IMG/VR virus record: IMGVR_UViG_3300017967_005407
Coordinates: 12,598 to 76,597 of that record
DNA: 64,000 nucleotides
Origin: a virus
Strand: one strand, 5' to 3'
Shown: positions 26,146-53,637 of the stretch, one piece after another
Layout: each line of letters begins with the position of its first letter
Numbering within the stretch: position 1 is the stretch's first letter
Translations under genes and position numbers: made by a program
Notes under the pieces: generated by a model
Told to the model about the DNA's origin: nothing
Seen by the model: only the letters and a program-made list of their open reading frames with translations
Database searches by the model: none

Positions 26146-27055
26146 TATTTTTAGAGTAGTTGATCATGACATAATTTATCTTAGTTATGATGAGCCCAAT
26201 GCCGAACAAAACTATGCAGATTTGCTTACAAAAGTTCCTTGGGCTAAACGTGTACACGGTGTAAAAGGAAGTGATGCTGCACACAAAGCTGCTGCAAATG
26301 CAAGTGATACAGAAAGATTTATTACTATCGATGGTGATAATCGAATACGTGAAACTTTTTTAAGCCAAGAAGCAGATTTAAGTGAATATGACTTAACTGA
26401 TAAAGTCATAAGTTGGACTGCTTATAATCAAATAAACGGACTTGCATATGGCAACGGCGGTATTAAGTGTTGGCCTAAACATAAAGTTTTAAGTATGAAA
26501 ACGCATGAAAACGCAGATCCAGACAATGCACATGCACAAGTAGATTTTTGTTGGGACTTGCAATATATTCAAATGAATGGAACATTCAGTGACATTTACA
26601 ATAATGCAACACCTCAACAAGCATGGAGAGCAGGATTCCGTGAAGGTGTTAAAATGGCACTAGATCAAGGTATAAAACCAGATATTGAAGATTTTAAACG
26701 CAATCATTGGAAAAATTTGCATAGACTTTGGATATGGTTAATGGTAGGTGCAGATGCTGATAACGGACGTTGGGCAATTTATGGAGCAAGAGAAGGTTTG
26801 TACAAAACTATGTGTACAGATTGGAACTTTATCAACGTGCGTGATTTTGAATGGTTAAACGATTATTGGAATAATATCGAGGTTAATGAAGAAACATTAG
26901 AAGATGAAACTCAAAGACTCGGTGATGAACTTATGAATGAATTACAGGCTCCAATTGCATTACAGCCGTTAGATGCAAATCAAAGTAAGTTTTTTAAAAC
27001 AGTGTATCAAAATCCTGTACGTAATCCTAAGTTTATCGATAAGGAACTTGGATGA
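26138..27055 (+). CDS. Glycosyltransferase-like protein (DGD motif; paralog of 30442..31473)
   Basis: 'IIYLSYDEPNAEQNY...RVHGVKG...FITIDGDN...NGLAYGNGGIK...AWRAGFREGVK'. Confidence 0.65.
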   Translation: MTDIFRVVDHDIIYLSYDEPNAEQNYADLLTKVPWAKRVHGVKGSDAAHKAAANASDTERFITIDGDNRIRETFLSQEADLSEYDLTDKVISWTAYNQINGLAYGNGGIKCWPKHKVLSMKTHENADPDNAHAQVDFCWDLQYIQMNGTFSDIYNNATPQQAWRAGFREGVKMALDQGIKPDIEDFKRNHWKNLHRLWIWLMVGADADNGRWAIYGAREGLYKTMCTDWNFINVRDFEWLNDYWNNIEVNEETLEDETQRLGDELMNELQAPIALQPLDANQSKFFKTVYQNPVRNPKFIDKELG

Positions 27056-28425
27056 GCGAAAGAGACGAAGCAGTTCGTATAACAAAATACACAGACGAAC
27101 AGATTTCTCCTACATTTTGTTTTGCTAAATGGTATCATGCAAACATTTATTTTCAGACAGGTGAAACACACAGTTGTTATCATCCTGCTCCTCATACAAT
27201 TGATACACAAGCTATTTTAAAAAATCCTAGTGCTATTCATAATACAAAACAAAAAATTGAAGAACGTGCTGCAATGTTGCGTGGTGAACAACCTAAAGGC
27301 TGTCAATACTGTTGGAACATTGAGAATATGGGTCCTGATTATATCAGCGATCGTAAAACCCGTAGCAGTAGTATTTACAACGAGGAAAGATTAAATGCTG
27401 TAAAACAAGGTGGCGCAGAATTTAATGTTAATCCGGAATATTTAGAAGTTAGCTTTGGTAATGAATGTAACTTCCGTTGTGGTTATTGTCATCCAAAAGC
27501 CAGCAGCAGATACTATCAAGAAATTAAGCAACACGGTCCATATGATATGGTGCGCAATCACCGATGTGATGTTGATTGGTTTAAAATTTATGAAGAAGAC
27601 AATAATCCGTACCTAGATGCATTTTGGAAATGGTGGCCTGATTTAAGCAACGACTTAACTATTTTACGCATCACAGGTGGAGAACCAACAATACAAAAGA
27701 GCACATATAAACTTTTTGATTTGTTGGAGCAGGATCCAAAGCCTCATTTAGAATTGAATGTTAACAGTAATTTAGGAGGCAAACCAAAGCAATTAGAAAA
27801 ATTTACCGATGCAGTAAATAGTTTGCTTAGTCAAAATAAAATTCGTAGATTCAAACTGTTTACAAGTATTGACACTTGGGGTAAACGTGCTGAGTACATA
27901 CGTAACGGATTAGATATTGATGTATTTGAGCGTAATTTAGATTATTTTATGCGTAATACAAATGCACCTGTAACTATAATGATTACATTTAATATTTTCA
28001 GTGTTACAACTTTTCAAACATTACTTGAAAAAATATTAGAATGGCGCCGAAAGTATAATGATGTTGAAACATTTCGGTGGAATCGTTTAAGTTTTGATAC
28101 ACCTTATCTAAAAGAACCATTACAATACGATATTAATATTTTGCCTCAGGAATATATGAAGTATATGCACAGTCATTTACAGTTTATAAAAGACAACTTA
28201 GATGATGAACGTAAAGATGCATTTACTACAATGGAATATGAACGTTTTAGGCGTGTAGTTGATTACATGGATTCAACACAGTATGATCCTGCAAAAGTTA
28301 TGCAAGGTCGTATTGACTTTTGGCGTTTTTTCAATGAGCAAGATAAAAGAAGAAATACAAATTTTAAAGAAGCATTTCCTGAAATGGCTGACTTTTTTGA
28401 AACTTGTAAAGATACTGCTAGTTAA
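27052..28425 (+). CDS. Radical SAM enzyme with N-terminal Twitch-like domain
   Basis: N-terminal 'FCFAKW...SCYH...CQYCW'; CNFRCGYC; GGEPT; 'SID...AEYIR'. Confidence 0.9.
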   Translation: MSERDEAVRITKYTDEQISPTFCFAKWYHANIYFQTGETHSCYHPAPHTIDTQAILKNPSAIHNTKQKIEERAAMLRGEQPKGCQYCWNIENMGPDYISDRKTRSSSIYNEERLNAVKQGGAEFNVNPEYLEVSFGNECNFRCGYCHPKASSRYYQEIKQHGPYDMVRNHRCDVDWFKIYEEDNNPYLDAFWKWWPDLSNDLTILRITGGEPTIQKSTYKLFDLLEQDPKPHLELNVNSNLGGKPKQLEKFTDAVNSLLSQNKIRRFKLFTSIDTWGKRAEYIRNGLDIDVFERNLDYFMRNTNAPVTIMITFNIFSVTTFQTLLEKILEWRRKYNDVETFRWNRLSFDTPYLKEPLQYDINILPQEYMKYMHSHLQFIKDNLDDERKDAFTTMEYERFRRVVDYMDSTQYDPAKVMQGRIDFWRFFNEQDKRRNTNFKEAFPEMADFFETCKDTAS

Positions 28426-29024: not shown

Positions 29025-29045
29025 ACTTGCATTATAGTATAAAAA

Positions 29046-30371
29046 TTATCCTAAGTCAACCCAAGAATTGCCGTTATATCCTTGGAATTTATTTGTGCTG
29101 CTATTAAAGATAATCATGCCTGCTGTTGCCGAAAGTGCATTACGTTCTGTGCTGTTTATAGGATGCGCTTTAAATGCATAACCGCCGACTGTACCTTGTC
29201 CGTCTACACTCAATTTTTTAGGACCGAGAACATCTGGCTGATTAGTGCCATCTGCTACACTTACGCCAAAAATTGTTTTGATGCTATTTGCGTTATCAGG
29301 AACAGTCCAATTTGGATCAACTGCATATCCCCAATGTCCGGCAGTTTTATATTCTGTTCCGTTATAAGCTAATATAGCTCTTAGGTCTAGTAAATCTCCT
29401 GGTATAACTTTTGCTTTACCGTCTGCGTTTACTCTATTGTAATGCATACGTCTTTGAGCAAATGGTCCACTTGGGTGTGGAATAACAACAAAATCATTGT
29501 ATTCTCTATAATTTGCGTTAATTGTAAGTGTATCATCCACTGCCCCAAAAGACAAAGATCCGTTGTTATTTGTTGCAAGAGAAACATTGCCTTCTGCTGT
29601 AACACTCAAACCGATATGTGTGCCTGCTGCATTCAATAAATCGCCTTGTATATTGCCTGTAACGTTACCTGTTATATCCCCAGTGATGTTACCTACAACA
29701 TCTCCTACAACATTACCATTTACATTACCTACAACATCGCCATTTAAATTTCCGTAAAATTCCGCAATATCTTGACTTGTGTCTACAACAGTTTGAGCAC
29801 CTCTACCAATTACATCACCAGTATGATCACCGATTGTGTCTCCCACTAAACTACCTTCTACGTCACCGTAAACATTACCAAAGTGTTGACCAGATACATC
29901 TCCTAATAATGGACCGTTAAATGTTCCTGCTGTAATGTCGGATACACTCAGACTTGAAACTTCTAAATTACCTAAATTAATAGTTTGAGTATTAATTCTA
30001 TCAACTGTAAGAGTTCTATTTGTAGCATCTAACATTACATTTTCTTGTTCGTCTAATATATCGCCTTGTACATTTCCAGTAACGTCACCAAACAAGTCTC
30101 CTACAACATCTCCGGTCACATCGCCGATAAACACAGCATCAGTACCATTAGTTCCGCTGTTGAGAACTACACTTCCGTTGGTTGCTGTTACATTACCAGC
30201 TAATTCACCTTCGTGCTTTCCAAGTAAAACATTATTCACAGTATCAACTAGTGTGGTATTGTCACTACCTACCACCGGCCCTTTTAAAGCACTATTCCAG
30301 CTATCTACCAAAATTGTGCTATCACTGCCCGTAATATTTAATCTAATTGTATCCCCAGGTAATATGCTCAT
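29046..30371 (-). CDS. Fibre-like virion protein with G-[DN]-[VIL]-x repeats
   Basis: AGGAG RBS and ATAAATA upstream; tetrapeptide repeat tracts; C-terminal 'ERNAL...GMIIFNSSTNKFQGYNGNSWVDLG' module shared with 54885..56366. Confidence 0.7.
   Translation of the reverse strand: MSILPGDTIRLNITGSDSTILVDSWNSALKGPVVGSDNTTLVDTVNNVLLGKHEGELAGNVTATNGSVVLNSGTNGTDAVFIGDVTGDVVGDLFGDVTGNVQGDILDEQENVMLDATNRTLTVDRINTQTINLGNLEVSSLSVSDITAGTFNGPLLGDVSGQHFGNVYGDVEGSLVGDTIGDHTGDVIGRGAQTVVDTSQDIAEFYGNLNGDVVGNVNGNVVGDVVGNITGDITGNVTGNIQGDLLNAAGTHIGLSVTAEGNVSLATNNNGSLSFGAVDDTLTINANYREYNDFVVIPHPSGPFAQRRMHYNRVNADGKAKVIPGDLLDLRAILAYNGTEYKTAGHWGYAVDPNWTVPDNANSIKTIFGVSVADGTNQPDVLGPKKLSVDGQGTVGGYAFKAHPINSTERNALSATAGMIIFNSSTNKFQGYNGNSWVDLG
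29640..30130 (-). repeat. Degenerate 12-nt coding repeat (G-D/N-V/I/L-x), three tracts
   Basis: e.g. GDVTGDVVGDLFGDVTGNVQGD and GNLNGDVVGNVNGNVVGDVVGNITGDITGNVTGNIQGD. Confidence 0.85.
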
Positions 30372-30389
30372 GTTTCTTCTCCTACTTTT

Positions 30390-30441: not shown

Positions 30442-31473
30442 ATGTATGATATCTATTTTATCGGATCAAACTCTCATCCACAATTTACTAAACTTAAAAA
30501 CAGATTTATAACTGCAAAAGCAGTAGATTCTGTAATTACAGCCAAAACTCAATCTAATACTAAAATGCTGTGGGTTGTATATCCTGAACTTGAAATAAAT
30601 GAAGATTGGGATTTTATGTACAAGTCTAAACCTGATGATTTAAAATATACTCATGTTTTCCTTAATGGAAAAAATTATGATGGTATATGCTTGATGCCTA
30701 AAGATAGTCATCATGGACCAGGTGAATTAGCTGCACGTTTTTATATCAACAAAAAATTTACAGATATTTCTGCTAGTACACCAATAGCTGAAACAAGCGA
30801 TATAGTTTTTATAAGTTACAAAGAACCAAATGCAGATGAAAATTATCAACGTCTGCTAGATAGATTCCCAAGAGCAAAACGTATACATGGAGTAAAAGGC
30901 ATACACCAAGCACACATTGAAGCTGCAAAGTTATGCGATACAGAACGTATATGGATCGTAGACGGTGATGCACAAATAGTAGATAATTTTAATTTTGACT
31001 ATATACCCGAATGGTGGAATAAACGTGCTGTGCATGTATGGCGTAGTATAAATCCTGTAAATGGATTAGAATATGGATACGGCGGTATAAAATTATTTCC
31101 AAGAGAAGAAACTATTAACATGGATACAAGTAAGCCTGATATGACTACAAGTATTAGTAACAAATTTGTACCAATGATGCAGGTTAGTAACTATACTTGT
31201 TTTGATACTGATCCTTTTAACACTTGGAAAAGTGCATTTAGAGAGTGTGTTAAATTAAGTAGTAGAGTAATTGATAGACAGAAAAACAATGAAACACAAA
31301 CTAGATTAGTTGCTTGGTGTACTAAAAGCTCAGGCGAGTACAAAGAATATGCACTCATAGGTGCCAAATCTGGTGCTGCATATGGCGCAAGAAATAAAAC
31401 TAATAAAGAAGCATTATCCAAAATAAACGACTTTGATTGGCTAGAAGAAAGGTTCAACGATGAATGTAAATAA
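30442..31473 (+). CDS. Glycosyltransferase-like protein with a degenerate N-terminal duplicate domain
   Basis: C-terminal domain 'DIVFISYKEPNADENY...RIHGVKG...WIVDGDA...NGLEYGYGGIKLFP...WKSAFRECVK' is homologous to 26138..27055. Confidence 0.65.
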   Translation: MYDIYFIGSNSHPQFTKLKNRFITAKAVDSVITAKTQSNTKMLWVVYPELEINEDWDFMYKSKPDDLKYTHVFLNGKNYDGICLMPKDSHHGPGELAARFYINKKFTDISASTPIAETSDIVFISYKEPNADENYQRLLDRFPRAKRIHGVKGIHQAHIEAAKLCDTERIWIVDGDAQIVDNFNFDYIPEWWNKRAVHVWRSINPVNGLEYGYGGIKLFPREETINMDTSKPDMTTSISNKFVPMMQVSNYTCFDTDPFNTWKSAFRECVKLSSRVIDRQKNNETQTRLVAWCTKSSGEYKEYALIGAKSGAAYGARNKTNKEALSKINDFDWLEERFNDECK

Positions 31474-32568: not shown

Positions 32569-32918
32569 AATATACAAAACCTATTAAAATATACTTGTTT
32601 AAAGATCAAAACAGAGTAGATGTTAGTGTAAAAGTTACAGACGATCTTGTTAATGGTTACAGATTTACAATTGATGAATTTGAAAAAATAATCGATAACT
32701 GGAAACATGGTGTTGAATTTCAATTCGAAGGTGGTTATGCAGTTGTGGAGTATAAAAAACACGGACCGAGACCTGAACGTAAAATAGATCCTTATGTGCG
32801 TTTTAGCATAAGTATTGGGTATGGTACATTTCATCATAGATTAACATATGATGATATGATTACAATAGAAAAAGAATATTTCTATCAAAAAAATAATAAA
32901 ATGTATTGGGACGAATAA
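32565..32918 (+). CDS. Hypothetical protein (117 aa)
   Basis: ATGA and TAATG overlaps with its neighbours. Confidence 0.7.
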   Translation: MKYTKPIKIYLFKDQNRVDVSVKVTDDLVNGYRFTIDEFEKIIDNWKHGVEFQFEGGYAVVEYKKHGPRPERKIDPYVRFSISIGYGTFHHRLTYDDMITIEKEYFYQKNNKMYWDE

Positions 32919-34003
32919 TGTATAGATATGAAGATGTAAAAGTTGTGCATTTAGAAGTAACACAACGATGCCAAGCAGCATGTCCTATGTGTGATCGTAA
33001 TATGAACGGTGGTGCCGATAATCCTCATATAACAAACGCAGAGCTTAGTTTAGAAGATTGTAAACGTATATTCAAACCTGAATTTATCCAACAACTCAAA
33101 ACAATGTTTATGTGTGGCAATTTGGGCGATCCTATTGTTGCACGAGATACATTAGAAATATTCAAATATTTTAGAGAACACAACCCTAATATGTGGTTGA
33201 GTATGAACACAAACGCAGGAGCAAAAGATGAAACGTGGTGGCGTGAACTTGCCAAAGTCTTTGGTAGAATGGGCGCTGTTATTTTCAGCGTGGATGGTCT
33301 TAGTGACACTAATCATTTATACAGGCAGAATGTTGTCTGGGATAATGTAGAACGTAATATGAGAGCATTTATAGATGCCGGCGGTAGAGCTCGTTGGGAT
33401 TATATTATTTTTGCACACAACGAACATCAAGTAGAAGAAGCAGAAGCACTTGCTAATTCTTGGGGATGTGAAAAATTTATTAAAAAGAAAACTGGAAGAT
33501 TTTACAGTACTGCTAAGTTAACAGGAAAAGAAACACACCAAGCAAAAAATCGCAAAGGTGAAGATACACAAAACTTAGCTAAACCTAAGAAAAAAGAAAA
33601 TATTAACATTGCGTTGTTAAAAGAAAAACAACTTACCAAAGAATACGGTAGTATGAAAGATTACTACGATACTTGTAAAATTAAATGTAAAGTAGCAGAA
33701 GAAGGTAACATCTTTATCACTGCCGAAGGACTAATGATGCCTTGTTGTTGGACTGCTGGACGCATGTATAAATGGTGGCATCCTGATCCTCGTGTAGAAC
33801 AAGTATGGGACTTTATTGATCGTGCTGGGGGTAAAGAAGGCATAGATGTTATAGAAAATAATTTACAGGATGTAATGAATGGAACATTATTATCTGATAT
33901 TGAAAATAGTTGGCATCTACCAAGCGTAAATGAAGGAAAATTAGGAGTATGTGCTCAAAAATGTGGCACAGAGTTCGATCCTTTTGCGGAGCAATTTAAA
34001 TGA
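32918..34003 (+). CDS. Radical SAM enzyme with C-terminal Twitch/SPASM-like domain
   Basis: CQAACPMC; 'GNLGDP'; 'FSVDGL'; C-terminal 'KC...MPCC...CAQKC'. Start moved to the TAATG overlap at 32918. Confidence 0.9.
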   Translation: MYRYEDVKVVHLEVTQRCQAACPMCDRNMNGGADNPHITNAELSLEDCKRIFKPEFIQQLKTMFMCGNLGDPIVARDTLEIFKYFREHNPNMWLSMNTNAGAKDETWWRELAKVFGRMGAVIFSVDGLSDTNHLYRQNVVWDNVERNMRAFIDAGGRARWDYIIFAHNEHQVEEAEALANSWGCEKFIKKKTGRFYSTAKLTGKETHQAKNRKGEDTQNLAKPKKKENINIALLKEKQLTKEYGSMKDYYDTCKIKCKVAEEGNIFITAEGLMMPCCWTAGRMYKWWHPDPRVEQVWDFIDRAGGKEGIDVIENNLQDVMNGTLLSDIENSWHLPSVNEGKLGVCAQKCGTEFDPFAEQFK

Positions 34004-34725
34004 ATTGGAAAGGTAGAGAAATTGAATCTTTACATTTTGGACTTACATATAAATGCACATTAGGATGCTTAGAATGTGCAAGGACCTACGCTACAAAAAA
34101 CAAAATTGCCGATATATCAAATACTGTTCATGTTGATTATAAAAATTATACAAAATTAATTAATAAAATTAATCCTTCGTCGATTGAGTTTTGTGGAAAT
34201 TGGGGAGATCCGATTTACTATCCTGATTTAATACCTCTTGTGCAATTTATTAGGGAAAAAGAAAAAGACCTAGGCTTTCCAATAAAGATAAAGATGCATA
34301 CAAATGGAAGTTATAGAGATAAAACGTTTTGGAATGAATTGGGCAATGTAATGACTTCAAATGATTGTATATTTTTTTCAATTGATGGTACAAGAGAAAA
34401 TTTTACCAAATACAGAGTTAACGGAGATATTCAAAGCATAGACGTAGGTATTCAATCATTATTAGAAGTTGAAAATAAACCTACTTTGTATCAAAAAACT
34501 ATTTGTTTTTCTTATAACAAGTGGAAGTTAGTTGATATAGTAAAAGAAGCTATTAATGCTAAGTTTGATTATATAAGGTTTGACTGGCCGCATGTGAGTG
34601 AGCACGAATGGCTTCGTCCTGATTTTTCAGCACGTTGGGCTTGGAAAGTTTTAAAATTAGCTGGATATGATTTTAATTATCCAAAAAACAATACAGATAT
34701 ATTAGTAAAGTCGTTAAATGTTTAA
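34000..34725 (+). CDS. Radical SAM core domain lacking the C-terminal Twitch domain
   Basis: CTLGCLEC; 'FCGNWGDP'; 'HTNGS'; 'FSIDG'. Confidence 0.85.
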   Translation: MNWKGREIESLHFGLTYKCTLGCLECARTYATKNKIADISNTVHVDYKNYTKLINKINPSSIEFCGNWGDPIYYPDLIPLVQFIREKEKDLGFPIKIKMHTNGSYRDKTFWNELGNVMTSNDCIFFSIDGTRENFTKYRVNGDIQSIDVGIQSLLEVENKPTLYQKTICFSYNKWKLVDIVKEAINAKFDYIRFDWPHVSEHEWLRPDFSARWAWKVLKLAGYDFNYPKNNTDILVKSLNV

Positions 34726-35008
34726 AAAAATTAAACCTATGTGTATGGAAAATTTACACCCCTTTGTAGAAATAAATGGTTTATTTTTACCGTGTTGTTA
34801 TTTAACAACTCATTCTAATCATGAGCAGGAGTTAAGAAGTTTATTTGGTGACGATTACGAAATGTTAAAATTACAAAACAATCACCCAAAAAAAATTATG
34901 AAACTTTGGAATAAAATTTATATGACTTGGAGAACAAAAAATCCTTATGTAGGATGCCTTAGGCATTGTCCTAAAAATGGCTCTTTAAAAATTAAGGAAA
35001 ATGATTAA
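34718..35008 (+). CDS. Stand-alone Twitch/SPASM-like Fe-S domain
   Basis: 'PMC...FVEINGLFLPCCYL...CLRHC' has the same Cys pattern as the C-termini of 32918, 35008 and 41493. Confidence 0.75.
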   Translation: MFKKIKPMCMENLHPFVEINGLFLPCCYLTTHSNHEQELRSLFGDDYEMLKLQNNHPKKIMKLWNKIYMTWRTKNPYVGCLRHCPKNGSLKIKEND

Positions 35009-40118: not shown

Positions 40119-40672
40119 TCATTACAGGAAATTTAGAAGAAAATTTAGCAAACGCATTGCATAAAATATACCCATATGCTCAATATTGCAGTCGTACAAC
40201 AGGATTTGATTTAAGTTTACGTGAAGATCAAGTACGTGTAGCACAACTAGTTTTAGAACATGATGTTTTTATAAATTGTGCAGCATTATTTAAATTCCAT
40301 CAAACAAATTTGTTAGATGAAGTATATCGTGTGTGTACTGAAAATAATCATCGTCCTCATATTATTAATATAGGCAGTACAACCGATCGTGTAAAAAACG
40401 GAAAAGCATGGAGATACAATGCCGAAAAGAAGGCGTTGCGTGATTACAGTAACACACTTGGTATAAGCGGAGTATGGGGTAAAACGCCAAAAATTACATA
40501 CATAAGTTTTGGTACGCTAAGTAATAATAGTAAAAAACATCCAGAAAGAGTTTGCTTAGATATTAACCGAGCAGCAGAATATATTAAATGGATTGTAGAT
40601 CAACCTAAAGACATAGGTATAAATGAAATAAGTATTGATCCTATGCAAGACAAATATTGGAACGAAGAATGA
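40115..40672 (+). CDS. Short-chain dehydrogenase/reductase (SDR)-like protein
   Basis: 'IITG', 'DVFINCA', 'IINIGS' and catalytic YxxxK (YNAEK); the glycine-rich motif is degenerate. Confidence 0.75.
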   Translation: MIITGNLEENLANALHKIYPYAQYCSRTTGFDLSLREDQVRVAQLVLEHDVFINCAALFKFHQTNLLDEVYRVCTENNHRPHIINIGSTTDRVKNGKAWRYNAEKKALRDYSNTLGISGVWGKTPKITYISFGTLSNNSKKHPERVCLDINRAAEYIKWIVDQPKDIGINEISIDPMQDKYWNEE

Positions 40673-43875: not shown

Positions 43876-45119
43876 GTAAAACATTTTGTCCTATGCCATT
43901 TACTCATTTGAATATTAAACAAGAAGGCAAAGTTAGTGCCTGTTGGCGTTTTCCTGATAAATTAGGCGATTATAGAACTCAAACATTACAAGAAATTTGG
44001 AACGATGACGCATTGCAAAAACTAAGACACGACAGTTTAAATGATGTGCAAAATATTGGATGTAGAAGCTGTTGGGATATGGAGAAAAGTGAAAGTATTA
44101 GCACACGTATGCAGTGCAGTCAAACTTTTCCTTATGTCAACCAACCGTTTGTAGAAGAACATATTCAAGAAGATTATAGCTTTCCAACAAAATATATACG
44201 CAGTGTTGAAATACGTTTCGATAATATTTGCAATTTAATGTGTAGGCATTGTAGTCCTGATTATAGTAGTGTTTGGGAACAAGCAGTCAAGCGTGATCCT
44301 ACACTAATGGACAAGATGCAAGAATATGGAACTTATAGAAAAGATGTTAACCATGTAAGTCTTACACAAGAAATGGTAGACGAAATAGCAAATGAGCTGG
44401 CACCTAACTTAGAAGAAATAATGATTGCCGGCGGCGAACCATTGTATCATGACAAGCACTACAAATTTCTTGAAGACATGCAACCATATGCAAGTAACAT
44501 ACGCTTGAGTTACAACACTAACCTAAACATATTAGAATACAAAGGTAAAAGTGTGTTAGACTTGTGGAAAAATTTCAAAGAAATTTGGTTGCGTATTAGT
44601 ATAGATGGCGATCCTAGTTGTTATGAATATGTACGTGCAGCAGGTAATCTACACAAAGTTGAAGAAAACATAAAAAAACTAAACGAAACACTAATTAATA
44701 CAGATATAAGTGCTACTTGTACTGTGAGTTTGTACAACATAACAAGATTTACTAACATTGTAAAATATTTTTGCGGATTAGATGTTTATTTTCACACAAG
44801 TTTGGTGCAATATCCAGAAGCTCTAAACATAAAATTGCTTCCACAAGAATTAAAAGATTCTATTACACAAGAATTTTGGCATTGGTATGAAAATGAAGCT
44901 GAAGATTATGTTAAAAGTGTTAGTAAAAAAGTAAAAGTACAAAAACAACTAGACAGAATTAAAAAATTTGCTACAAATACACTCAATTACATGAACAGCG
45001 AAGATAGACATGACAAATGGCATTTGTTTTTAGATTACAGTGCCGCTTTAGATAGCTATCACGGCACTGATTTGTTCGAGAGTTACTCCGAATATTCTTC
45101 AAAATTAAATAAATCGTAA
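43872..45119 (+). CDS. Radical SAM enzyme with N-terminal Twitch-like domain
   Basis: 'FCPMPF...ACW...CRSC'; CNLMCRHC; 'AGGEP'. Confidence 0.9.
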   Translation: MSKTFCPMPFTHLNIKQEGKVSACWRFPDKLGDYRTQTLQEIWNDDALQKLRHDSLNDVQNIGCRSCWDMEKSESISTRMQCSQTFPYVNQPFVEEHIQEDYSFPTKYIRSVEIRFDNICNLMCRHCSPDYSSVWEQAVKRDPTLMDKMQEYGTYRKDVNHVSLTQEMVDEIANELAPNLEEIMIAGGEPLYHDKHYKFLEDMQPYASNIRLSYNTNLNILEYKGKSVLDLWKNFKEIWLRISIDGDPSCYEYVRAAGNLHKVEENIKKLNETLINTDISATCTVSLYNITRFTNIVKYFCGLDVYFHTSLVQYPEALNIKLLPQELKDSITQEFWHWYENEAEDYVKSVSKKVKVQKQLDRIKKFATNTLNYMNSEDRHDKWHLFLDYSAALDSYHGTDLFESYSEYSSKLNKS

Positions 45120-46372
45120 TCTTTTTGCAAATCATCTAATATATCATTATATTTTTTGAACTTTTGTAAATCGCTTGCTGGAACTTTGATATCACAATAT
45201 AAGTTTGAGTTTATTTTTGCAACACGTTTAATATGACTTGCTGTAAGTGTGTTTATTTGTTGTAATCCAAACTGTAATGCATTGCTTCTAAACCCTGGAA
45301 TGTCACCAATTGCATGATATATACCAGTAATATTGAATTTTTCTAATTCGTTAATAATTGCAGCATCATCAAACAACATATTTGCAAGTGCATATGAATG
45401 ATTTTTTGTTTTGTATATTTGCCATGCATCGTATATAGCATCTTTGCTACCAAATTCTTGTAACAGCACATTCCATTGTTTCTCTATAATGTTATCTGAG
45501 CTATTATTCCAAAAATCAAAATCTCCATCACCTGCGTCATTGCACAAAGAAAGAGTTTTAACTAATCCTTTTTTTGTACCATCCCAATTTTTTGTAATTA
45601 GCTTTTTCCAAAGTAGATTTCGATCAAAAATATCAAAGTGTAAATAGTTTTCTACATTGTCTATATACTTACTACCTAGTATAAATGCTTTAAACATGCT
45701 ACAAGGGCCTACAACAGTGTTTATAGCGCCCTGTACGGTACTCAAATGTGTTTTATCAGTGCATATAGCTTCTGTATTATAAAGAAAAAACACCCCTTTA
45801 TCCTGATCATTTGCGTGCCTTGGATTACGTGTTGTAAGAAGTTTAATAAACAAATCAGTAAGGTTTGTATTAATAATAGGAAGTTTAGTAAAATGATTTA
45901 ACTCGTCATTCCATGCCTGTGGATTTTGTGTTGCTTTAGAATCTAATAACTGTTTAATTATTACGTTATTGATTTTTTTACTATCTGATTTTATGTAATC
46001 AGCAATCTTGGGTTTTCCTTTTTGTCGCCAATGTTTTAAATTTATTATCTGTATAGTTGGAGATTTTTTGTCGTGTATTACACTCCACTCTGTTTTATGA
46101 CTTTCTATATCATATATACACATTTTATGAATATGCCAAAAATCGTGATGATACATTCCAAACCAAGTCACAATTAGATATTCAGTTTTTTTGTCAGCAA
46201 TTATATCTAATATGTCATCTACTGATTCTGCCCATACAAATGGATGCTGCTCAACACTTTGTTTTACATAATGTCCACGTTGATAATACAACATCCAGCT
46301 TTGATAAAGGTCTCGATCAATATTGTTTTTTATATTTTTAGGTACAACAACGGCATGTTGTATATTAAGCAT
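45083..46372 (-). CDS. Hypothetical protein (paralog of 36020..37384)
   Basis: GGAG RBS before ATG 46372; 'FFLYNTE' and 'NWDG' motifs. Confidence 0.6.
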   Translation of the reverse strand: MLNIQHAVVVPKNIKNNIDRDLYQSWMLYYQRGHYVKQSVEQHPFVWAESVDDILDIIADKKTEYLIVTWFGMYHHDFWHIHKMCIYDIESHKTEWSVIHDKKSPTIQIINLKHWRQKGKPKIADYIKSDSKKINNVIIKQLLDSKATQNPQAWNDELNHFTKLPIINTNLTDLFIKLLTTRNPRHANDQDKGVFFLYNTEAICTDKTHLSTVQGAINTVVGPCSMFKAFILGSKYIDNVENYLHFDIFDRNLLWKKLITKNWDGTKKGLVKTLSLCNDAGDGDFDFWNNSSDNIIEKQWNVLLQEFGSKDAIYDAWQIYKTKNHSYALANMLFDDAAIINELEKFNITGIYHAIGDIPGFRSNALQFGLQQINTLTASHIKRVAKINSNLYCDIKVPASDLQKFKKYNDILDDLQKDYDLFNFEEYSE

Positions 46373-47099
46373 AAATTTTTCTCCAGTGATGGTAACTTTC
46401 TTCAATACGTTTGTTCCAACCGTCACCTAACCTGCCGTGTGCAATAATATGATATCTATCCTCATTGCTCCAATTATATACACAATGTATATTATAGAGA
46501 TTTAACTTGATAATACGTCCTTGTTCCCAAGGCAAATAGCCTATTTCGTCCATGTAGAAATGGCATTCTTCTGGATTGTTTAATGCTATATTAGTAGGAC
46601 CGATATGATTTTCGTCTAGTGTAATACTATCTCTATGTGGAATAATCCAGCCTCCTGGAGATAATTTCATAATACGTATTCTGTCATACTGTTTGTAATC
46701 AAATCTGTTTTCAAAAAAATCTCTAATAGTAGGACACCAGTCTGCTACGTCGGTCCACCTGTATGGTGCGTCTTTTCTGTCATTGTATCCGTAAGTATGA
46801 TGAGATTCTGTGTGTACACTACTCAAGCCATGGATGCACAAACTACTCCAACCGCTGTGACTTTCATGATGTCTATGAGGAACATAGTGTTTTTCTAATC
46901 TTTTAGCTTCCCAAAGCATTTTCTCCCAATCAGCATCTTCAAAACCTGTAATAGGTAAAAAGTCTAGTTGATCACTCATGTGTATTTCACGAGATGTTTT
47001 TAAGTTTTGTGGATATTTTGGTTTAGCTGGAAATTTATTACGTTCTGCAAATATCTCTGGCGGTTCGTTGCTTACTCCCCATTCTGTAATTGTATACAT
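46365..47099 (-). CDS. Aspartyl/asparaginyl beta-hydroxylase-family Fe(II)/2OG dioxygenase
   Basis: 'WSSLCIHG', 'CPT', 'RIRIMKLSPGGWIIPHRD', 'HCVYNWSNEDRYHII'. Confidence 0.8.
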   Translation of the reverse strand: MYTITEWGVSNEPPEIFAERNKFPAKPKYPQNLKTSREIHMSDQLDFLPITGFEDADWEKMLWEAKRLEKHYVPHRHHESHSGWSSLCIHGLSSVHTESHHTYGYNDRKDAPYRWTDVADWCPTIRDFFENRFDYKQYDRIRIMKLSPGGWIIPHRDSITLDENHIGPTNIALNNPEECHFYMDEIGYLPWEQGRIIKLNLYNIHCVYNWSNEDRYHIIAHGRLGDGWNKRIEESYHHWRKIYA

Positions 47100-47162: not shown

Positions 47163-48146
47163 ATGAGCCTTGTTGCATATCATAAATTACACAAAAAAAT
47201 AGATGACTTATCCGAATGGGGAATGTTTTTTAGAAAAGTAAACTTTCCAAAAAGAACAACAGACAATTGTAGATGTAAAAGAGATTTGAAATATATTTTG
47301 TGGGGCATAGCTAGATGTATTTTGCATCAAGATCCAAAATTAATTAACGAGATTTCTCATAAATTTGTAAAAAATAAAAAACTTGTCCTAACTGATCATA
47401 GAGTAGAATTAGCTGTTTATGCTTATATAGAAGGTGAGTTATACAAACTACTTAAACACCATAGAGATGATGTTGAAATTATGATAGAAGCAATGCAGTT
47501 GCTAAAAGATAATTTTAAAAAACTAGAAGAAGCAAACTACACTAGAGAATTTAGTGATTTGATTAAAGAAAGAAAAACTACATTTACATGGTTAGATAAA
47601 AAAGTTACGCAAGAAACAGTTGAAGATATATTGTTAGACTTACACATGTACGCACCTAGTAAACAAAATAGAATGCCTTACTATCTTGATGTTTTAGATT
47701 GGAAGGACCCTGAGTTGAGACATAATATTTTTGAATGGTGCTGGAGAGACCTTAAACATGATGCACAAACAGATAAAGGAAATCCTCAAACATTAGCACC
47801 TTATCTATTTTGTTTTACTCCACGGATATCTAATAATCCTGACGATAATGCTTTGGAAGAAGCAATGATTGAAATAGGTATAGCCAGTAGCTTTATTATT
47901 TGGAATGCACAAAGTAGAGGATTAAGTACAGGTTATTGTGCATGTATTCAAGATCCTACAATGATAAGTAATGCATTAGGACGTCCGAATAATCAGGTTA
48001 AATTGTTATTAGGTATGGGCTACAAAGATGAGAACGCTAACAGTTATTTTGATCCAAGAATACAGGCCGATAAATTGCTACCAAGTGATAATTCATTCCA
48101 TAAATCTAATCAGGAAAATATAGGATCTTATATCGTATGGCATTAA
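47163..48146 (+). CDS. Nitroreductase-fold protein with an unknown N-terminal domain
   Basis: 'LIKERKT...APSKQN...IEIGIASSFIIWNAQSRGLSTGYCAC...LLLGMGY' begins at about residue 145. Confidence 0.75.
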   Translation: MSLVAYHKLHKKIDDLSEWGMFFRKVNFPKRTTDNCRCKRDLKYILWGIARCILHQDPKLINEISHKFVKNKKLVLTDHRVELAVYAYIEGELYKLLKHHRDDVEIMIEAMQLLKDNFKKLEEANYTREFSDLIKERKTTFTWLDKKVTQETVEDILLDLHMYAPSKQNRMPYYLDVLDWKDPELRHNIFEWCWRDLKHDAQTDKGNPQTLAPYLFCFTPRISNNPDDNALEEAMIEIGIASSFIIWNAQSRGLSTGYCACIQDPTMISNALGRPNNQVKLLLGMGYKDENANSYFDPRIQADKLLPSDNSFHKSNQENIGSYIVWH

Positions 48147-49303
48147 CAAAAACATTGTGCAGTGCAGCATGGTATGATATAAATGTTGACTTTGGAGCAA
48201 AAACATTAAGCCATTGTTGTAAAAGTCAACGTGAATCTTTTCCTGAGGTTGTTACAGAAGACTTTTTTAACAATAGTTTACACATACAAAAATTACGTGA
48301 TGATTTAGTAAATGGTATAGAAAATCCTGCATGTAATTTTTGTTGGAATAGTTATAAAGAAACTGGAACTGCATACAGAGATTTTAAAAACAAATGGATA
48401 GATAATTCTAGTGTTAACTACAATGTAAATAATATAGAAATTACACTTGATAATATTTGTGATATGGCATGTATATATTGTGATGCTACTAGTAGCAGTA
48501 GGATTGCACAAGAATTAGGACATGAGCATGTTATGAATATTCCTAATGATGCTCATATGCAAACTTTCATAAATTGGTTTGAGCATGTAGCATTAAAACA
48601 AAAGTTTATACCTTTGAGTTTTTTAGGTGGCGAAATTAGTTACAGTAAAAACTTTTATAAATTTATGAATATGATTTTGCAAAAAAAGTCTATTTACAAT
48701 AGCAGAATAAATTTTAGTGTATTAACCAATGGCAATGCAACTGAAAAAAATCAAAAAAAACTTTTAGCATTATTTGATAGTTTGCCTGAAAAATGGGGAA
48801 TTAGTTTAGGCATCAGTAACGAATCTACTGGAGTTGTTGCTGAGTCAGTAAGATATGGACTGAATTGGAATCGTTTTCAAAACAACTTCATTGATTATAT
48901 TAATCATCCTAGATTGGTAAATGTAACACTTGCTCCTACTCCTAATATTTTTACTGTAAAGCATATGTATGAGTATTTTGATTGGGTCATAAACGAATTG
49001 CGGAAAACAGATACCAAACTTGCAATTTTTGGAAATTGGGTAAACTGGCCAAACGAACTAGATCCAAGTAAATTAGATGATGCATATAAGATACATGTGG
49101 ATAAATGCTTGCAATTAATCAAAACAAATAAAGATTTATTTTTAGATGCGGGACAATATAATCATACGTACAAATGGTTAGAACAATTAAAAGCACGTAT
49201 AGGTACACAACAGCAAAATGATGTTGAATTAGATAATTGGATACGTAAAACTGCAATACAAAAGAAAGATAACAGTCTTTTGAATTTAAGAGAGTATATA
49301 TGA
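48137..49303 (+). CDS. Radical SAM enzyme with N-terminal Twitch-like domain (close paralog of 52504..53637)
   Basis: 'LCSAAW...HCCK...CNFCW'; CDMACIYC; 'LGGE'. Confidence 0.88.
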   Translation: MALTKTLCSAAWYDINVDFGAKTLSHCCKSQRESFPEVVTEDFFNNSLHIQKLRDDLVNGIENPACNFCWNSYKETGTAYRDFKNKWIDNSSVNYNVNNIEITLDNICDMACIYCDATSSSRIAQELGHEHVMNIPNDAHMQTFINWFEHVALKQKFIPLSFLGGEISYSKNFYKFMNMILQKKSIYNSRINFSVLTNGNATEKNQKKLLALFDSLPEKWGISLGISNESTGVVAESVRYGLNWNRFQNNFIDYINHPRLVNVTLAPTPNIFTVKHMYEYFDWVINELRKTDTKLAIFGNWVNWPNELDPSKLDDAYKIHVDKCLQLIKTNKDLFLDAGQYNHTYKWLEQLKARIGTQQQNDVELDNWIRKTAIQKKDNSLLNLREYI

Positions 49304-50565
49304 CAAAGGAATGGAAAAACCCAGATTGGTTCCCTGCAAAAGGCAATAGAGCGTGTTTGCTTAAATGGAGTCAAGTTACATTAAGTTTATGGGATAACAC
49401 TAGTAGTAGTTGTCACAGAAATGGAATGCATCAAATAGGTGAGGATTTTGATTTTCATAATGAACCAAAATGGGTAGAACATAGAGAAAAAATGTTAAAT
49501 GGCGATTGGCCTAGTGATGGATGGGGTTGCGAACATTGTCGAGATCAAGAAGCTATAGGCGGAACTAGCGATAGGATGCAATGGCTTAGTAATAACAATA
49601 ACAAAAGATATGTTCCAAAAGAACTTTTTAATAATCCAACTGCCACTCGTATAAAACCTACACAAGTAAGTATGCATTTTAATAATAAATGTAATTTAAA
49701 GTGTGTTTATTGTGGGCCTCAGTATAGCAGTGCTTGGGTGAAAGAAATGCAAAAATATGAACCTAAACATAGTTTTATACAAGATGTAGATATAAAAGAA
49801 AAAACGTACGAACAAAGACTGGAAAAATTCTACAAATGGATGGAAAACAATTATAGCAGTCTTAAAGCGTTTGATTTATTAGGCGGTGAACCTTTTATAC
49901 AACAAGAAACATGGGACTGTGTTGATTGGATGATAAAGCATCCTAATCCGGAATGTGATATAGAAATATACAGCAATATGGAAGTAAAACCTAAACTTTT
50001 TAAAAGAGGATGCGAAAAATTAAAAGAACTTAGCAAAACAGTCAAAGAAGTTGTATTTGTAATTAGTGTAGATACTTTTGGACCAGAAAGTGAGTATATA
50101 AGATTTCCACATAATTGGGAAGTTATGGAAGATAATATAAATTATTTAATTTATGAATGCCCAGAAATTATTCCAACTATGAATTGGACTGTTACTAATC
50201 TTAGTCTAAAAACTACTCCGGCATTAGTCCGTAAAGTTATTGAATGGAATAAACATCGGTATGTAAGTGTAAATTATAATAGATGTCACGATCCACATTT
50301 TTTTGATCCAAAAATTATGCCAGAAGGGTTTTACGATGATGTAATTGATGAACTAAAAGAATTAAATCAAATAATGTATCAAGGAAACAACAGTCCATAT
50401 ATGGATTATGTAAACACTATTTTCAAAGAAATAAACGAAACACCTGCAGATTACGAAGCTATAAAAATGCTTAAATGGCGCCTAACAGAACTTGATAAAC
50501 GTAGAGGCACAAATTGGCAAGAAACATTTCCTTGGTTAACAACTGTTGGACATAATAGAATTTGA
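49300..50565 (+). CDS. Radical SAM enzyme with N-terminal Twitch-like domain (same subfamily as 27052..28425)
   Basis: 'ACLLKW...SCHR...CEHC'; CNLKCVYC; 'LGGEP'. Confidence 0.88.
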   Translation: MTKEWKNPDWFPAKGNRACLLKWSQVTLSLWDNTSSSCHRNGMHQIGEDFDFHNEPKWVEHREKMLNGDWPSDGWGCEHCRDQEAIGGTSDRMQWLSNNNNKRYVPKELFNNPTATRIKPTQVSMHFNNKCNLKCVYCGPQYSSAWVKEMQKYEPKHSFIQDVDIKEKTYEQRLEKFYKWMENNYSSLKAFDLLGGEPFIQQETWDCVDWMIKHPNPECDIEIYSNMEVKPKLFKRGCEKLKELSKTVKEVVFVISVDTFGPESEYIRFPHNWEVMEDNINYLIYECPEIIPTMNWTVTNLSLKTTPALVRKVIEWNKHRYVSVNYNRCHDPHFFDPKIMPEGFYDDVIDELKELNQIMYQGNNSPYMDYVNTIFKEINETPADYEAIKMLKWRLTELDKRRGTNWQETFPWLTTVGHNRI

Positions 50566-50595
50566 TTGACAAAATAATTAAAGATAGTATACTAT
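50566..50595 (+). promoter_or_regulatory. Sigma70-like promoter: TTGACA with TATACT (N16) or TACTAT (N18)
   Basis: Fills the 34-nt gap and ends a few nt before ATG 50600; no RBS. Confidence 0.55.
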
Positions 50596-50599
50596 AGAT

Positions 50600-51733
50600 A
50601 TGACTGAAGATTTAAAATGGTCTAATTATGACTTTACTAAAATACCTTTTAATGACATTATCCAAGTGGGACAACGAACGCTCCTCTACCGAGATATCTT
50701 TACGGTATCTTGGTTACTAGGAAGATTTTGTAACTATAGGTGTAGTTACTGTTGGCCTTATGCAAGAAGTGACAGAAAAGATCATAGACCAACTGAGTTG
50801 TGTCTAGCAACTATAGATGAGATAAAGAAGCAAGCACGTGATAACGGTTTTAACAGTTTCCATTTTAGTCTGTCTGGCGGCGAGCCTACCTTTCATCCAG
50901 GGTACTTGGACATACTTGGTCACTTGGCTAATGATGTGCCTAATACTAATTATACTTCCATACATATGACATCAAACTGCTCACGCCCAATGAAGTGGTT
51001 TGAAGATTATGTAGAAAAAGCAAAACCTTTCCATAGAGCAAGTATAACGGCTAGTTTGCACACAGAACACTTAAATACAAAGGAGAAGATGCAGGACTTT
51101 GCAGATAAATTAATCCTGTGTCAAGAACACGATGTACAAGTTACAATTAATATGGTCATGGTTCCGGAATGGTTTGAAAGAGATTGGGAAAACGCCCTCT
51201 TCTTCCACGAGCAAGGAATCAACGTTACACTTAAACCCCAATCGGATCCGACTGCGTCAAAAGTGGTTGATGGATACACTGGGGATATGCTTAAAAGACT
51301 CTGGAACGGAATGCCACAAAGAGCCTACACAGAAACAAAACGCAAGTGGGAAGGTAGACCCAAACCAAACTTCAAAATTCCTGTAGGTATTATGGGCAAA
51401 CCTGATGCAAGTGTACCTTGGCATTTTCAAGTAGAGTTTACTGATAAAGATGGTAATAAGTGGTACATGGATCAAGCAGAAAGATTTAATGCTTTTGAAT
51501 TTAATAAATTCGAAGGTTGGAGTTGTAATGCTGGATATCAAGGTATTATTATTCGTGAGCCCGATGGCAGTATTAAACGTAGTTACAGTTGTCATGATGT
51601 GCCTCTTGGCAATATAGAAACTGGTTTTAAATTATTTGATAAACCTATGCCATGTATGACTAAGTCTTGTGTTAGTAGTGCTGATAGTAAAATACCTAAA
51701 AGGAGAATTGATGAACATACCAATGAGTCATGA
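50600..51733 (+). CDS. Radical SAM enzyme with C-terminal Twitch-like domain (paralog of 21440..22399)
   Basis: CNYRCSYC; 'SGGEPT'; 'FEGWSCNAG...SC...LGNI...CMTKSC'. Confidence 0.9.
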   Translation: MTEDLKWSNYDFTKIPFNDIIQVGQRTLLYRDIFTVSWLLGRFCNYRCSYCWPYARSDRKDHRPTELCLATIDEIKKQARDNGFNSFHFSLSGGEPTFHPGYLDILGHLANDVPNTNYTSIHMTSNCSRPMKWFEDYVEKAKPFHRASITASLHTEHLNTKEKMQDFADKLILCQEHDVQVTINMVMVPEWFERDWENALFFHEQGINVTLKPQSDPTASKVVDGYTGDMLKRLWNGMPQRAYTETKRKWEGRPKPNFKIPVGIMGKPDASVPWHFQVEFTDKDGNKWYMDQAERFNAFEFNKFEGWSCNAGYQGIIIREPDGSIKRSYSCHDVPLGNIETGFKLFDKPMPCMTKSCVSSADSKIPKRRIDEHTNES

Positions 51734-52532
51734 AGATGCATGGGCATTAAATGACAAAGTTGAAAAGGCAATTGGTAGTGAAAATCCAAGTGTAAGTTTG
51801 GAAAATGTTATTCCGAGTGACGTACTACTAGAGTGTAAAGATTTTGTCAAAAACTTTCTTGATTTACCTGATGAATTACCTAAAGATAGAATTTTTTGGT
51901 ACCGAGATGGAATGGTTCACAGACAAAAATTTGTTCAAGACTTTAGTAAAAAATATATTGAGCCCTACTTAAATGAAAATGAAATTTTAATCGGTGATAC
52001 TGCATTCTGTATTAATCATCCTCCACACGATGTTCATGTTGACAACAGAGACTTTAGAGCCGACGAAGAAAAAGCAGGAGTAATTGGCACTAGAAGTGTT
52101 GTTGTACCTATTGAAATAGATACGGACAACTTTCCTAAGTTATACACTGCAAATCAATATTTCTACGGTCCTAGCACTCGTATGCGTAATGGTTGTAACA
52201 GTATAGATACATTAGATAGAGAAGTAGCAAGACAGAAAAGTTGTGGTGTTTACTTTCTTTACGATTATGAAAAATATGGTGTAAAGTATTTAGAAAAAGA
52301 AAATGTTATAACCGAAAAATGGTGGAACGAACACATAAGCGAACCATATTTTGTTCCTTATAGCACATTTGACAGGCTTTCAATTGAAGCTGAGCACGAC
52401 TGGAAACCAGGAAATATTATTGTATTTGATAGTTGTAGAATACATTGGGCTGAAAATCTTCTTAAAAAAGAAGCATCTTTTAAAATAGGATTGAGTTTGA
52501 ATTATGGCATTGTGTTCGAAAAGCTGGACTGA
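51711..52532 (+). CDS. Fe(II)/2-oxoglutarate oxygenase-like protein (paralog of 40669..41493)
   Basis: AGGAG RBS before ATG 51711; 'DVHVDNR', 'GNIIVFDSCRIH', 'KIGL'. Confidence 0.65.
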   Translation: MNIPMSHEDAWALNDKVEKAIGSENPSVSLENVIPSDVLLECKDFVKNFLDLPDELPKDRIFWYRDGMVHRQKFVQDFSKKYIEPYLNENEILIGDTAFCINHPPHDVHVDNRDFRADEEKAGVIGTRSVVVPIEIDTDNFPKLYTANQYFYGPSTRMRNGCNSIDTLDREVARQKSCGVYFLYDYEKYGVKYLEKENVITEKWWNEHISEPYFVPYSTFDRLSIEAEHDWKPGNIIVFDSCRIHWAENLLKKEASFKIGLSLNYGIVFEKLD

Positions 52533-53637
52533 CATTAACATTGATTTTGGCGAGAAAATTATAAAACACTGTTGTAAATCAATTGGTGAAAAATATCATA
52601 TTTTAGATGAAAATTTTATAAATCATAGTGAAGGAATAGTTACTCGCAGACTTGAATCTTTAAACAACATAAAAAATGCTCAGTGTAATTATTGTTGGAA
52701 TCATGATAACAAATCAAATGCTTCATATAGAGATTTGTATAACAAACCAATCGATGTAAATAAAGATGTAGATAGTTTAGTAGAATTTATTGAGTTGAAA
52801 TTTGATAATGTTTGTAATTTAGGATGTGTGTATTGTAGTGAAATAGACAGCAGTACAATTGCAAAAGAAAAAAATTTAGTAAACAGTATTACTAAACACG
52901 ACGAAAAAGATGTTGAAGTTGTTACAAATTACATACAAAAACTACTCAATAAAAATAAAGAAGTGCGTATTAATATGTTAGGCGGCGAGCCAACATTAAG
53001 TAAAGGCTATCACCAATTTATTAAAAATTTGATTAAAACAAATGCAAATGATACAAATATAATTATGGTTACCACTAGCAATGGCAATATGCACAGTAAT
53101 ATTTTAGATACATTAATTTCATATATGGAACAAACTAAATGGAATTGGGTATGGGGATTCAGCGGTGAGTCAACTGGAAAAATATTTGAAAATGTAAGAC
53201 ATGGCTCGGATTGGGATCAATGGAATAATAATTTAGACATTTTATCATCTCATAAAAAAACTTTGTGTATCAGTTTCAATCCTACTGTGAATTTGCTTAC
53301 AGTTAAAGATTTCCCCAATTACATAAATCATGTAACAAATTGTAACAAAATGTATCTAATTAATCCAAATTTTGTATTATTACCATTTGAACTTAGTTTA
53401 GCCAAAGTGCCAAAACATTTTATAAAATACATAGAAGATGCAAAAAATATATTTGAAAAGAAAAATATAAAATGTATCAATAAATCAGATGTAATGAAAT
53501 GGTTTGATGTATGTATAAATACCATTGGAACTGAAAAACTTGATAATGATGTTTTGAAGAATTATTTACAAATTCAAAACAAAAATAAAAATAACACTTT
53601 GGATTTAAGTCTGTTAATGGAACAAGTAAATGAATAA
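52504..53637 (+). CDS. Radical SAM enzyme with N-terminal Twitch-like domain
   Basis: 'LCSKSW...HCCK...CNYCW'; CNLGCVYC; 'LGGEPT'. Confidence 0.88.
   Translation: MALCSKSWTDINIDFGEKIIKHCCKSIGEKYHILDENFINHSEGIVTRRLESLNNIKNAQCNYCWNHDNKSNASYRDLYNKPIDVNKDVDSLVEFIELKFDNVCNLGCVYCSEIDSSTIAKEKNLVNSITKHDEKDVEVVTNYIQKLLNKNKEVRINMLGGEPTLSKGYHQFIKNLIKTNANDTNIIMVTTSNGNMHSNILDTLISYMEQTKWNWVWGFSGESTGKIFENVRHGSDWDQWNNNLDILSSHKKTLCISFNPTVNLLTVKDFPNYINHVTNCNKMYLINPNFVLLPFELSLAKVPKHFIKYIEDAKNIFEKKNIKCINKSDVMKWFDVCINTIGTEKLDNDVLKNYLQIQNKNKNNTLDLSLLMEQVNE

Follow-up and report, generated by a model that had tools for sequence, protein, structure and literature searches.

Eight genes within a 64,000-nucleotide stretch of phage DNA encode radical S-adenosylmethionine (SAM) enzymes in which a Twitch-type auxiliary domain lies ahead of the catalytic core, and all belong to the uncharacterized family NF033640 (NCBIfam N_Twi_rSAM, twitch domain-containing radical SAM protein), two of them as divergent members. 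The stretch, hereafter referred to as the window, comprises positions 12,598 to 76,597 of IMG/VR virus record IMGVR_UViG_3300017967_005407, a 76.6-kb record of an uncultured phage. Within a cassette conserved in the tail-fiber region of ~350-kb marine and salt-marsh myophages, the array formed by these genes constitutes the variable portion. By analogy with BtrN, the encoded proteins would be tailoring enzymes of glycans or nucleotide-sugars that employ a fully cysteine-ligated, electron-accepting auxiliary cluster, and we assign this reading a probability of roughly 0.55.

A preliminary description of the window, made from its letters, had proposed eight radical SAM paralogs with a Twitch-like domain placed first and had mentioned an N-terminal-twitch family of unknown function. 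The mentioned family indeed exists as NF033640, and the open reading frames (ORFs), profile matches, and cysteine motifs all confirm the proposed paralogs. Each of the eight genes (rT1 to rT8 in order of position, named hereafter by the first position of their spans) lies on the + strand, begins at a true ORF start exactly where it had been placed, and has an intact, full-length frame. The NF033640 profile matched all eight over their full length (E-values of 2e-42 to 1e-127), and Pfam likewise recognized the radical SAM core in every one. The curated NF033640 cut-off of 170 bits was passed by six genes with scores of 248 to 427 bits, namely 27052 (27052..28425, 457 aa, 318 bits), 37412 (37412..38812, 466 aa, 427 bits), 38805 (38805..40118, 437 aa, 372 bits), 42514 (42514..43875, 453 aa, 296 bits), 43872 (43872..45119, 415 aa, 294 bits), and 49300 (49300..50565, 421 aa, 248 bits). 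Since 48137 (48137..49303, 388 aa, 159.5 bits) and 52504 (52504..53637, 377 aa, 145.6 bits) score just under 170 bits, these two are regarded as divergent relatives rather than certified members of the family. The most conserved of the eight is 37412. The Pfam SPASM domain (PF13186, gathering score of 21.5 bits) was detected above its gathering score at the N-termini of 37412 (26 bits, residues 9-94), 42514 (34 bits, residues 9-85), and 43872 (41.6 bits, 1.5e-10, residues 6-68), while the other five copies had no direct PF13186 match and are tied to SPASM only via the family alignment. Our literature search found no paper characterizing the N-terminal-Twitch family and nothing specific on Bdellovibrio radical SAM paralogs or jumbo-phage radical SAM proteins.

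Conservation of the N-terminal cysteines, which the preliminary description had named beforehand as a check capable of overturning its proposal, proved to be complete. In an alignment of the eight proteins, the sole invariant cysteines are C9, C27, C90, and C93, together with C146/C150/C153 (37412 numbering), and the identical set of four plus three is invariant in an alignment of 30 diverse public members. The N-terminal motif has the spacing C-x17/18-C(C)-x36-61-C-x2-C, its first cysteine is always followed by x3-W/F, and it ends 40-55 residues upstream of CxxxCxxC. Individually, the N-terminal cysteines occupy residues 23, 42, 84, and 87 of 27052 (CxxxCxxC at 139), 9, 27, 28, 90, and 93 of 37412 (146), 6, 24, 25, 76, and 79 of 38805 (134), 9, 27, 28, 81, and 84 of 42514 (131), 6, 24, 64, and 67 of 43872 (120), 8, 27, 28, 66, and 69 of 48137 (108), 19, 38, 77, and 80 of 49300 (131), and 4, 23, 24, 61, and 64 of 52504 (104). 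All seven cluster cysteines and a GGE motif are kept throughout, even in the divergent 48137 and 52504. The C-terminal "D..R" helix that had also been described applies to the remaining six proteins and is absent from these two; its D and R are each ≥90% conserved among the 30 public members. SPASM/Twitch enzymes carry the auxiliary domain as an extension at the C-terminal side of the core (PMC9012708). In all eight phage proteins, the auxiliary domain instead sits at residues ~4-95, ahead of the core, and the claimed inversion relative to canonical SPASM/Twitch enzymes is thus borne out.

An AlphaFold2 (AF2) model of 43872, with a mean predicted local distance difference test (pLDDT) score of 90.5, places C6 before and C24 after a hairpin at residues 12-15/20-22, with the cysteines flanking the β-hairpin as they do in SPASM/Twitch domains. 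The core of this model matches the structures of anSME (Z 12.8), BlsE (12.4), CteB (12.2), SkfB (12.1), and MoaA (11.6), and the peptide-modifying SPASM/Twitch enzymes among its top matches are anSME, CteB, SkfB, and ChlB. At the sequence level, the profile retrieved SkfB, viperin, and BlsE. BtrN was absent among the structure and sequence matches listed for the family. A viperin-like antiviral role was considered and rejected, as the matches are confined to the core and score far under the cut-off. To our knowledge, no solved structure has an N-terminal Twitch domain followed by the radical SAM core. The phage proteins would mean that a Twitch module can also serve its auxiliary role when attached to the opposite end of the core.

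In BtrN, which oxidizes an aminocyclitol by two electrons, four cysteines ligate the auxiliary cluster, while that of MoaA is held by three cysteines, has an open Fe, and binds substrate (PMC9012708). Because four N-terminal cysteines are invariant in the phage proteins, their auxiliary cluster is probably an electron acceptor or relay, having a redox rather than a substrate-binding role. We envision an N-terminal Twitch-type domain of ~100 residues, in which the four cysteines flank the β-hairpin and a helix and would supply all ligands of a single auxiliary [4Fe-4S] cluster, followed by a partial barrel of the radical SAM type, in which the CxxxCxxC cluster would cleave SAM to yield a 5'-deoxyadenosyl radical, and a C-terminal part predicted to form a helical cap. 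On a nucleotide-sugar or an elongating glycan, this radical would remove a hydrogen atom from one of the sugar carbons, and the auxiliary cluster would subsequently accept the electron of the resulting substrate radical. Such electron transfer to an auxiliary cluster has been demonstrated in SuiB, and it has been proposed to occur in BtrN. The expected product would be a keto-sugar or a related edit (an epimer, a deoxy sugar, or an amino sugar), with each of the old paralogs presumably carrying out a different edit. Neighboring gene products, including GT-A-fold transferases, a possible short-chain dehydrogenase/reductase (SDR), hydroxylases, and other radical SAM enzymes, could process the edited sugar onward, and the final phage product may either decorate the virion (i.e. 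its fibers) or remodel the host envelope.

A nucleotide-sugar or glycan is the likely substrate because of the genes that surround the family in phages as well as in Bdellovibrionota. Neighbors at related phage loci include a UDP-glucose dehydrogenase, a carbamoyltransferase, and an FkbM methyltransferase. In a Bdellovibrio isolate, they include UDP-glucose/GDP-mannose dehydrogenases, NAD epimerase/dehydratases, and a DegT aminotransferase, while 134 neighbor ORFs at chromosomal Bdellovibrionota loci comprise 13 GT2 glycosyltransferases and 22 further radical SAM proteins, with PfkB kinases also present. Within the window, 30442 (30442..31473, + strand, AF2 mean pLDDT 85) encodes a GT-A-fold (nucleotide-diphospho-sugar transferase) protein whose residues 116-276 match B4GALNT1 (Z 11.3), STIV A197 (10.4), a Leptospira glycosyltransferase (10.2), and SpsA (9.7). 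Its paralog 26138 (26138..27055, + strand) shares an invariant DxD motif with it in their alignment (D174-x-D176), and the fold of 26138 is assigned via the 30442 model; both the GT-A fold and the DxD motif expected of such enzymes are thus present. The ESM Atlas provided only a 0.87 lead to GT2 for 30442, and clusters of the 30442/26138 type are 97-100% viral, while Pfam, NCBIfam, and PDB sequence searches all missed this family. At least 50% identity to 30442 is found in 62 of 80 related loci. Based upon the model, we consider both proteins to be GT-A-fold transferase-like, with the proviso that nucleotidyltransferases share the same fold.

Several observations weigh against a sugar-directed role. 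No substrate is recognizable from sequence and no family member has an assigned activity; the GT-A fold is common to nucleotidyltransferases (IspD and MobA are among the 30442 matches); few glycosyltransferases of the classical Pfam families occur at the phage loci; and the placement of the N-terminal cluster beside the active site is an assumption made by analogy. In addition, the nearest solved structures are as often peptide-modifying (anSME, CteB, and SkfB) as sugar-modifying (BlsE), and the island contains two genes of the Asp/Asn β-hydroxylase family, 46365 (46365..47099, - strand, PF05118) and 53630 (53630..54199, + strand), as well as an embedded fiber-like gene with long G-D/N-V-x period-4 repeats (29046..30371, - strand), all of which fit protein modification too. 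These O2-dependent hydroxylases also stand alongside oxygen-sensitive radical SAM enzymes. Accordingly, the alternative that deserves the most attention, which we still regard as unlikely, is that the enzymes modify proteins (fiber or virion proteins, or a ribosomal peptide) through radical cross-linking, epimerization, or oxidation, similar to anSME, CteB, SkfB, and SuiB, with the Asp/Asn hydroxylases acting upon the same protein. Such a role would suit the top structural matches, ChlB included, the PF05118 hydroxylases, the regular repeats of the fiber-like protein, and the location of the island amid tail-fiber genes. However, Pfam identified no RRE/PqqD-type domain, precursor peptide, protease, or exporter in the window (no systematic small-ORF search was made), and no such families occur among the commonest ones of the phage or Bdellovibrionota neighborhoods. 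Furthermore, the repeat fiber has no homolog in the Bdellovibrionota loci, whereas the enzymes do, and the neighborhood there is dominated by GT2 and sugar-nucleotide enzymes.

The nucleotidyltransferases among the GT-A matches, together with weak, core-only matches of the eight proteins to the viperin, MoaA, and QueE models, would also be compatible with enzymes acting upon nucleotides or DNA, either in phage DNA hypermodification or in the synthesis of modified nucleotides, with the GT-A-fold proteins serving as IspD- or MobA-type nucleotidyltransferases. We find this improbable, given that the viperin, MoaA, and QueE matches reflect the generic core only and score far under the family cut-offs, the island is located in the structural/tail-fiber module rather than the replication module, and the cellular homologs reside in polysaccharide-type loci. 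That most of the eight are merely drifting, functionless duplicates in a hypervariable island, as the variable copy number among related phage records and the two copies under the family cut-off might suggest, is scarcely credible when all eight retain full-length frames, the seven cluster cysteines, and GGE, other phages carry orthologs of individual paralogs at 52-93% identity, and the copies fall into old subfamilies common to cells.

The preliminary description counted eight radical SAM genes and thereby missed six others; the window has 14 in total, packed into ~33 kb. Three of the additional genes, 32906 (32906..34003), 35008 (35008..36030), and 41406 (41406..42533), all on the + strand, carry a C-terminal C-x18-CC...C-x3-C motif. 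In 32906, which matches PF04055 and follows the usual domain order, the cysteines are at residues 261, 280, 281, 349, and 353. It is conserved backbone of the cassette, being at least 50% identical in 76 of the 80 related viral loci. The tails of these three proteins nearly mirror the N-terminal motif of the eight, and Pfam SPASM does not recognize them. Because of these tails, both domain orders coexist in one operon. Immediately downstream of 32906 is a short radical SAM gene of 241 aa, 34000 (34000..34725, + strand), which has CxxxCxxC at residue 19 and is devoid of an auxiliary motif; its PF04055 score of 19.8 bits (E 1e-3) compares with a gathering score of 29.5, and it matches W_rSAM_matur (NCBIfam) at 1.5e-11 over the core only. 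Another backbone member is 50600 (50600..51733, + strand, 377 aa, PF04055 57 bits), which is 81-88% identical in related phages and 64-68% identical in loci labeled Bdellovibrionales in metagenome-assembled genomes (MAGs). The fourteenth, 21440 (21440..22486, - strand), lies at the upstream edge of the island.

Among the remaining island genes, the small backbone protein 40115 (40115..40672, + strand) is present in 37 of the 80 viral loci and is ~40% identical in Bdellovibrionota loci. It is possibly SDR-like, as an S...YxxxK motif was seen by eye and the SDR match had an E-value of only 0.26. PDB sequence searches with 40115, 31460, and the 30442 profile returned nothing significant. The hydroxylase 46365 has homologs of 40-44% identity in Bdellovibrionota loci, and two nitroreductase-family proteins are encoded at 47163..48146 and 54217..54867, both on the + strand. 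The paralogs at 40657-41493 and 51669-52532 have no Pfam match and display HxD...H by eye, which suggests that they could be further 2-oxoglutarate/Fe(II) oxygenases. Two proteins of ~450-470 aa with no family match are encoded amid the radical SAM genes at 35984-37384 (+) and 45083-46426 (-), and orthologs of 35984 were seen in only a few related loci.

A profile built from the eight proteins retrieved 7,592 clusters (50% identity) at E≤1e-30. Tandem double forms of 800-1200 aa are frequent among these clusters, and many of the top matches are 770-1410 aa long and consist of two full N_Twi units in tandem, which may be either natural fusions of adjacent paralogs or artifacts of gene calling. 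Orthologs of 37412 at 81-93% identity were found in 382 IMG/VR contigs, with many more in Tara, ENA, and JGI contigs. Across the 80 related loci, the backbone order 26138 (GT-A), 30442 (GT-A), 31460, 32906, 37412, 40115, 38805, and 50600 is kept, with variable radical SAM cassettes inserted between the backbone genes and a total of 2 to 10 family copies per related phage record.

The preliminary description had further attributed the eight paralogs to serial duplication with diverging substrate specificity. The three subfamilies it had pointed out do hold, as 37412/38805, 27052/49300, and 48137/52504 are 35%, 26%, and 30% identical, respectively. Serial duplication within the phage was not supported by a FastTree phylogeny built from 188 representatives after clustering at 55% identity. 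Viral rows are intermixed with cellular ones in this tree, where well-supported branches force a minimum of 21 label changes, and the eight copies of the window are scattered over it, requiring 7 label changes for 8 rows and leaving only 48137/52504 as sisters. Judging from this phylogeny, which we read only coarsely because the FastTree build has many long branches, the eight copies are old subfamilies common to phages and cells, and their divergence would therefore predate the phage. Diverging substrate specificity among the paralogs is nevertheless plausible.

We also examined where the cellular members of the family reside. A GTDB scan using one genome per species identified 172 loci, of which 79 were kept. 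Nearly all of the latter are from Bdellovibrionota, including an isolate and closed chromosomes of 2.5-3.0 Mb. The search patterns were derived from the 38805-like subfamily and are biased towards such members; therefore, hidden Markov model (HMM) searches of sampled phyla were added. These found NF033640 above its cut-off in 31 of 151 sampled Bdellovibrionota genomes, in 3 of 351 genomes from the phylum of a MAG labeled Rickettsiales (the center genome included), and in none of 14 control genomes. Five Bdellovibrionota genomes hold 7-20 copies each, often clustered, with one having 13 within 30 kb. Homologs of the island genes in Bdellovibrionota genomes and MAGs are 38-68% identical, including 61-62% for 37412, 48% for 32906, and ~40% for the GT-A pair, and copies of 38805 are 50-61% identical on contigs of Bdellovibrionota-labeled MAGs. 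Since 37412, 50600, 32906, 30442/26138, 40115, and 46365 all have homologs there, the whole module is common to the phage and Bdellovibrionota. The giant virion protein family phrog_10938 is absent from the five Bdellovibrionota genomes carrying the family, which, together with the location of the genes on megabase contigs, indicates that these copies are truly cellular. By comparison, MAGs labeled Rickettsiales (MED657), Crocinitomicaceae, and Verrucomicrobiales contain 7-14 N_Twi matches over several contigs, some of them duplicated, and the 37412 copies of the first two are 62% and 82% identical, respectively. All three have phrog_10938 and consequently must include binned jumbo-phage contigs. 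The earlier suggestion that many "uncultured bacterial" members are really viral is therefore correct for these three MAGs and fails as a generality, as does the mainly viral origin of the family that it implied, because the family has a cellular home in Bdellovibrionota, on isolate and closed chromosomes that lack phrog_10938. A separate locus was seen on a 1.27-Mb contig labeled Candidatus Parcubacteria, which has seven tandem N_Twi genes (835416-845702) and no phrog_10938. Among these seven is the cellular gene most closely related to 37412 (58%), directly preceded by genes resembling 32906 and 34000, an order that is syntenic with the phage backbone.

The source of the window is a jumbo myophage that was found again, exact, in 18 salt-marsh DNA runs. 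The upstream border of its tail-fiber region is a giant virion structural protein of 4528 aa (946..14532, + strand, phrog_10938, 1e-291), which precedes the island along with a baseplate-wedge fragment and tail-collar and fiber proteins. Downstream are an Mtd_N fiber, a CobT-like (DUF2201/VWA) protein paired with a MoxR/CobS-like ATPase (57906-60393, - strand), and a 5'-3' exonuclease. The CobS-like ATPase shares 50% identity with its counterpart in the Pseudomonas phage PA5oct, 44% with Phosso, 39% with Atu_ph07, and 36% with SCTP-2, making jumbo myophages its nearest cultured kin; the genomes of the latter three are 440-490 kb. CheckV rated related 182-kb records as 51% complete, which places the genome size at ~350 kb, and 37412 orthologs also occur on public contigs of 320-350 kb. 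An identity as a pelagimyophage or cyanomyophage was set aside given the ATPase relationships and the CheckV sizes. No tRNA genes were found in the 64-kb window. Megablast of 10 kb of the island yielded no match among cultured phages, and tblastn with 37412 matched only RsoM2USA and Vibrio phages K566/K567 at just 21-25% identity, so there is no close cultured relative at hand. In four salt-marsh metatranscriptome runs, short, identical, low-depth contigs are strewn over the island (the uncovered parts being uninformative), and these fall short of proving transcription because DNA carry-over is possible. The longest such pieces (~1 kb, two runs) fall on the fiber-like gene 29046.

With 8-14 radical SAM genes per phage, these arrays are among the densest known and imply a virus-encoded, multi-step radical pathway, probably acting upon a sugar. 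The occurrence of the family in ~20% of the sampled Bdellovibrionota versus <1% of the second phylum suggests that genes have passed between two different sorts of predators that prey on Gram-negative cells. More tentatively, and as a conjecture to which we give perhaps one chance in several, jumbo phages and predatory Bdellovibrionota might share a mobile, combinatorial radical glycan-editing kit, in which one sugar scaffold would receive a different oxygen-independent C-H edit from each N-terminal-Twitch subfamily (oxidation, epimerization, deoxygenation, or the formation of a C-C bond or a C-methyl group), while cassette swaps would diversify a surface glycan for prey/host attachment or evasion. 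If true, this would entail several new radical SAM sugar chemistries as well as glycan-based host-range variation in giant phages. The Bdellovibrio isolate, which has 7 copies, offers a culturable system for finding the product, and our survey flags public-database MAGs having mis-binned jumbo-phage contigs.

Among known enzymes, BlsE (cytosylglucuronate decarboxylase), whose substrate is a nucleoside-sugar, and anSME are the best structural matches to the 43872 core (residues ~108-380). Both differ in having C-terminal auxiliary domains and are just 14-17% identical, and the first 100 residues of the phage protein fall outside the alignment. In BtrN, the cysteine spacing is C-x17-C...C-x2-C, and the Twitch domain is a C-terminal extension, whereas it precedes the core in the phage proteins. 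The likeness to BtrN consists of one auxiliary [4Fe-4S] site with four cysteine ligands (PMC9012708) and a carbohydrate-type context. At the level of the island, parts of the picture were known already: NF033640 is catalogued, and marine T4-like pelagimyophages have a host-recognition cluster with glycosyltransferases and "radical SAM cassettes" (PMC7029224). That study contains neither an identification of the family nor an N-terminal Twitch domain, and the phage studied here is nearer to jumbo phages. Nonetheless, both systems present a hypervariable island in the structural module, accompanied by tail fibers and situated beside a giant structural protein, which in the pelagimyophages corresponds to a position between VrlC and the neck protein gp14 (PMC7029224).

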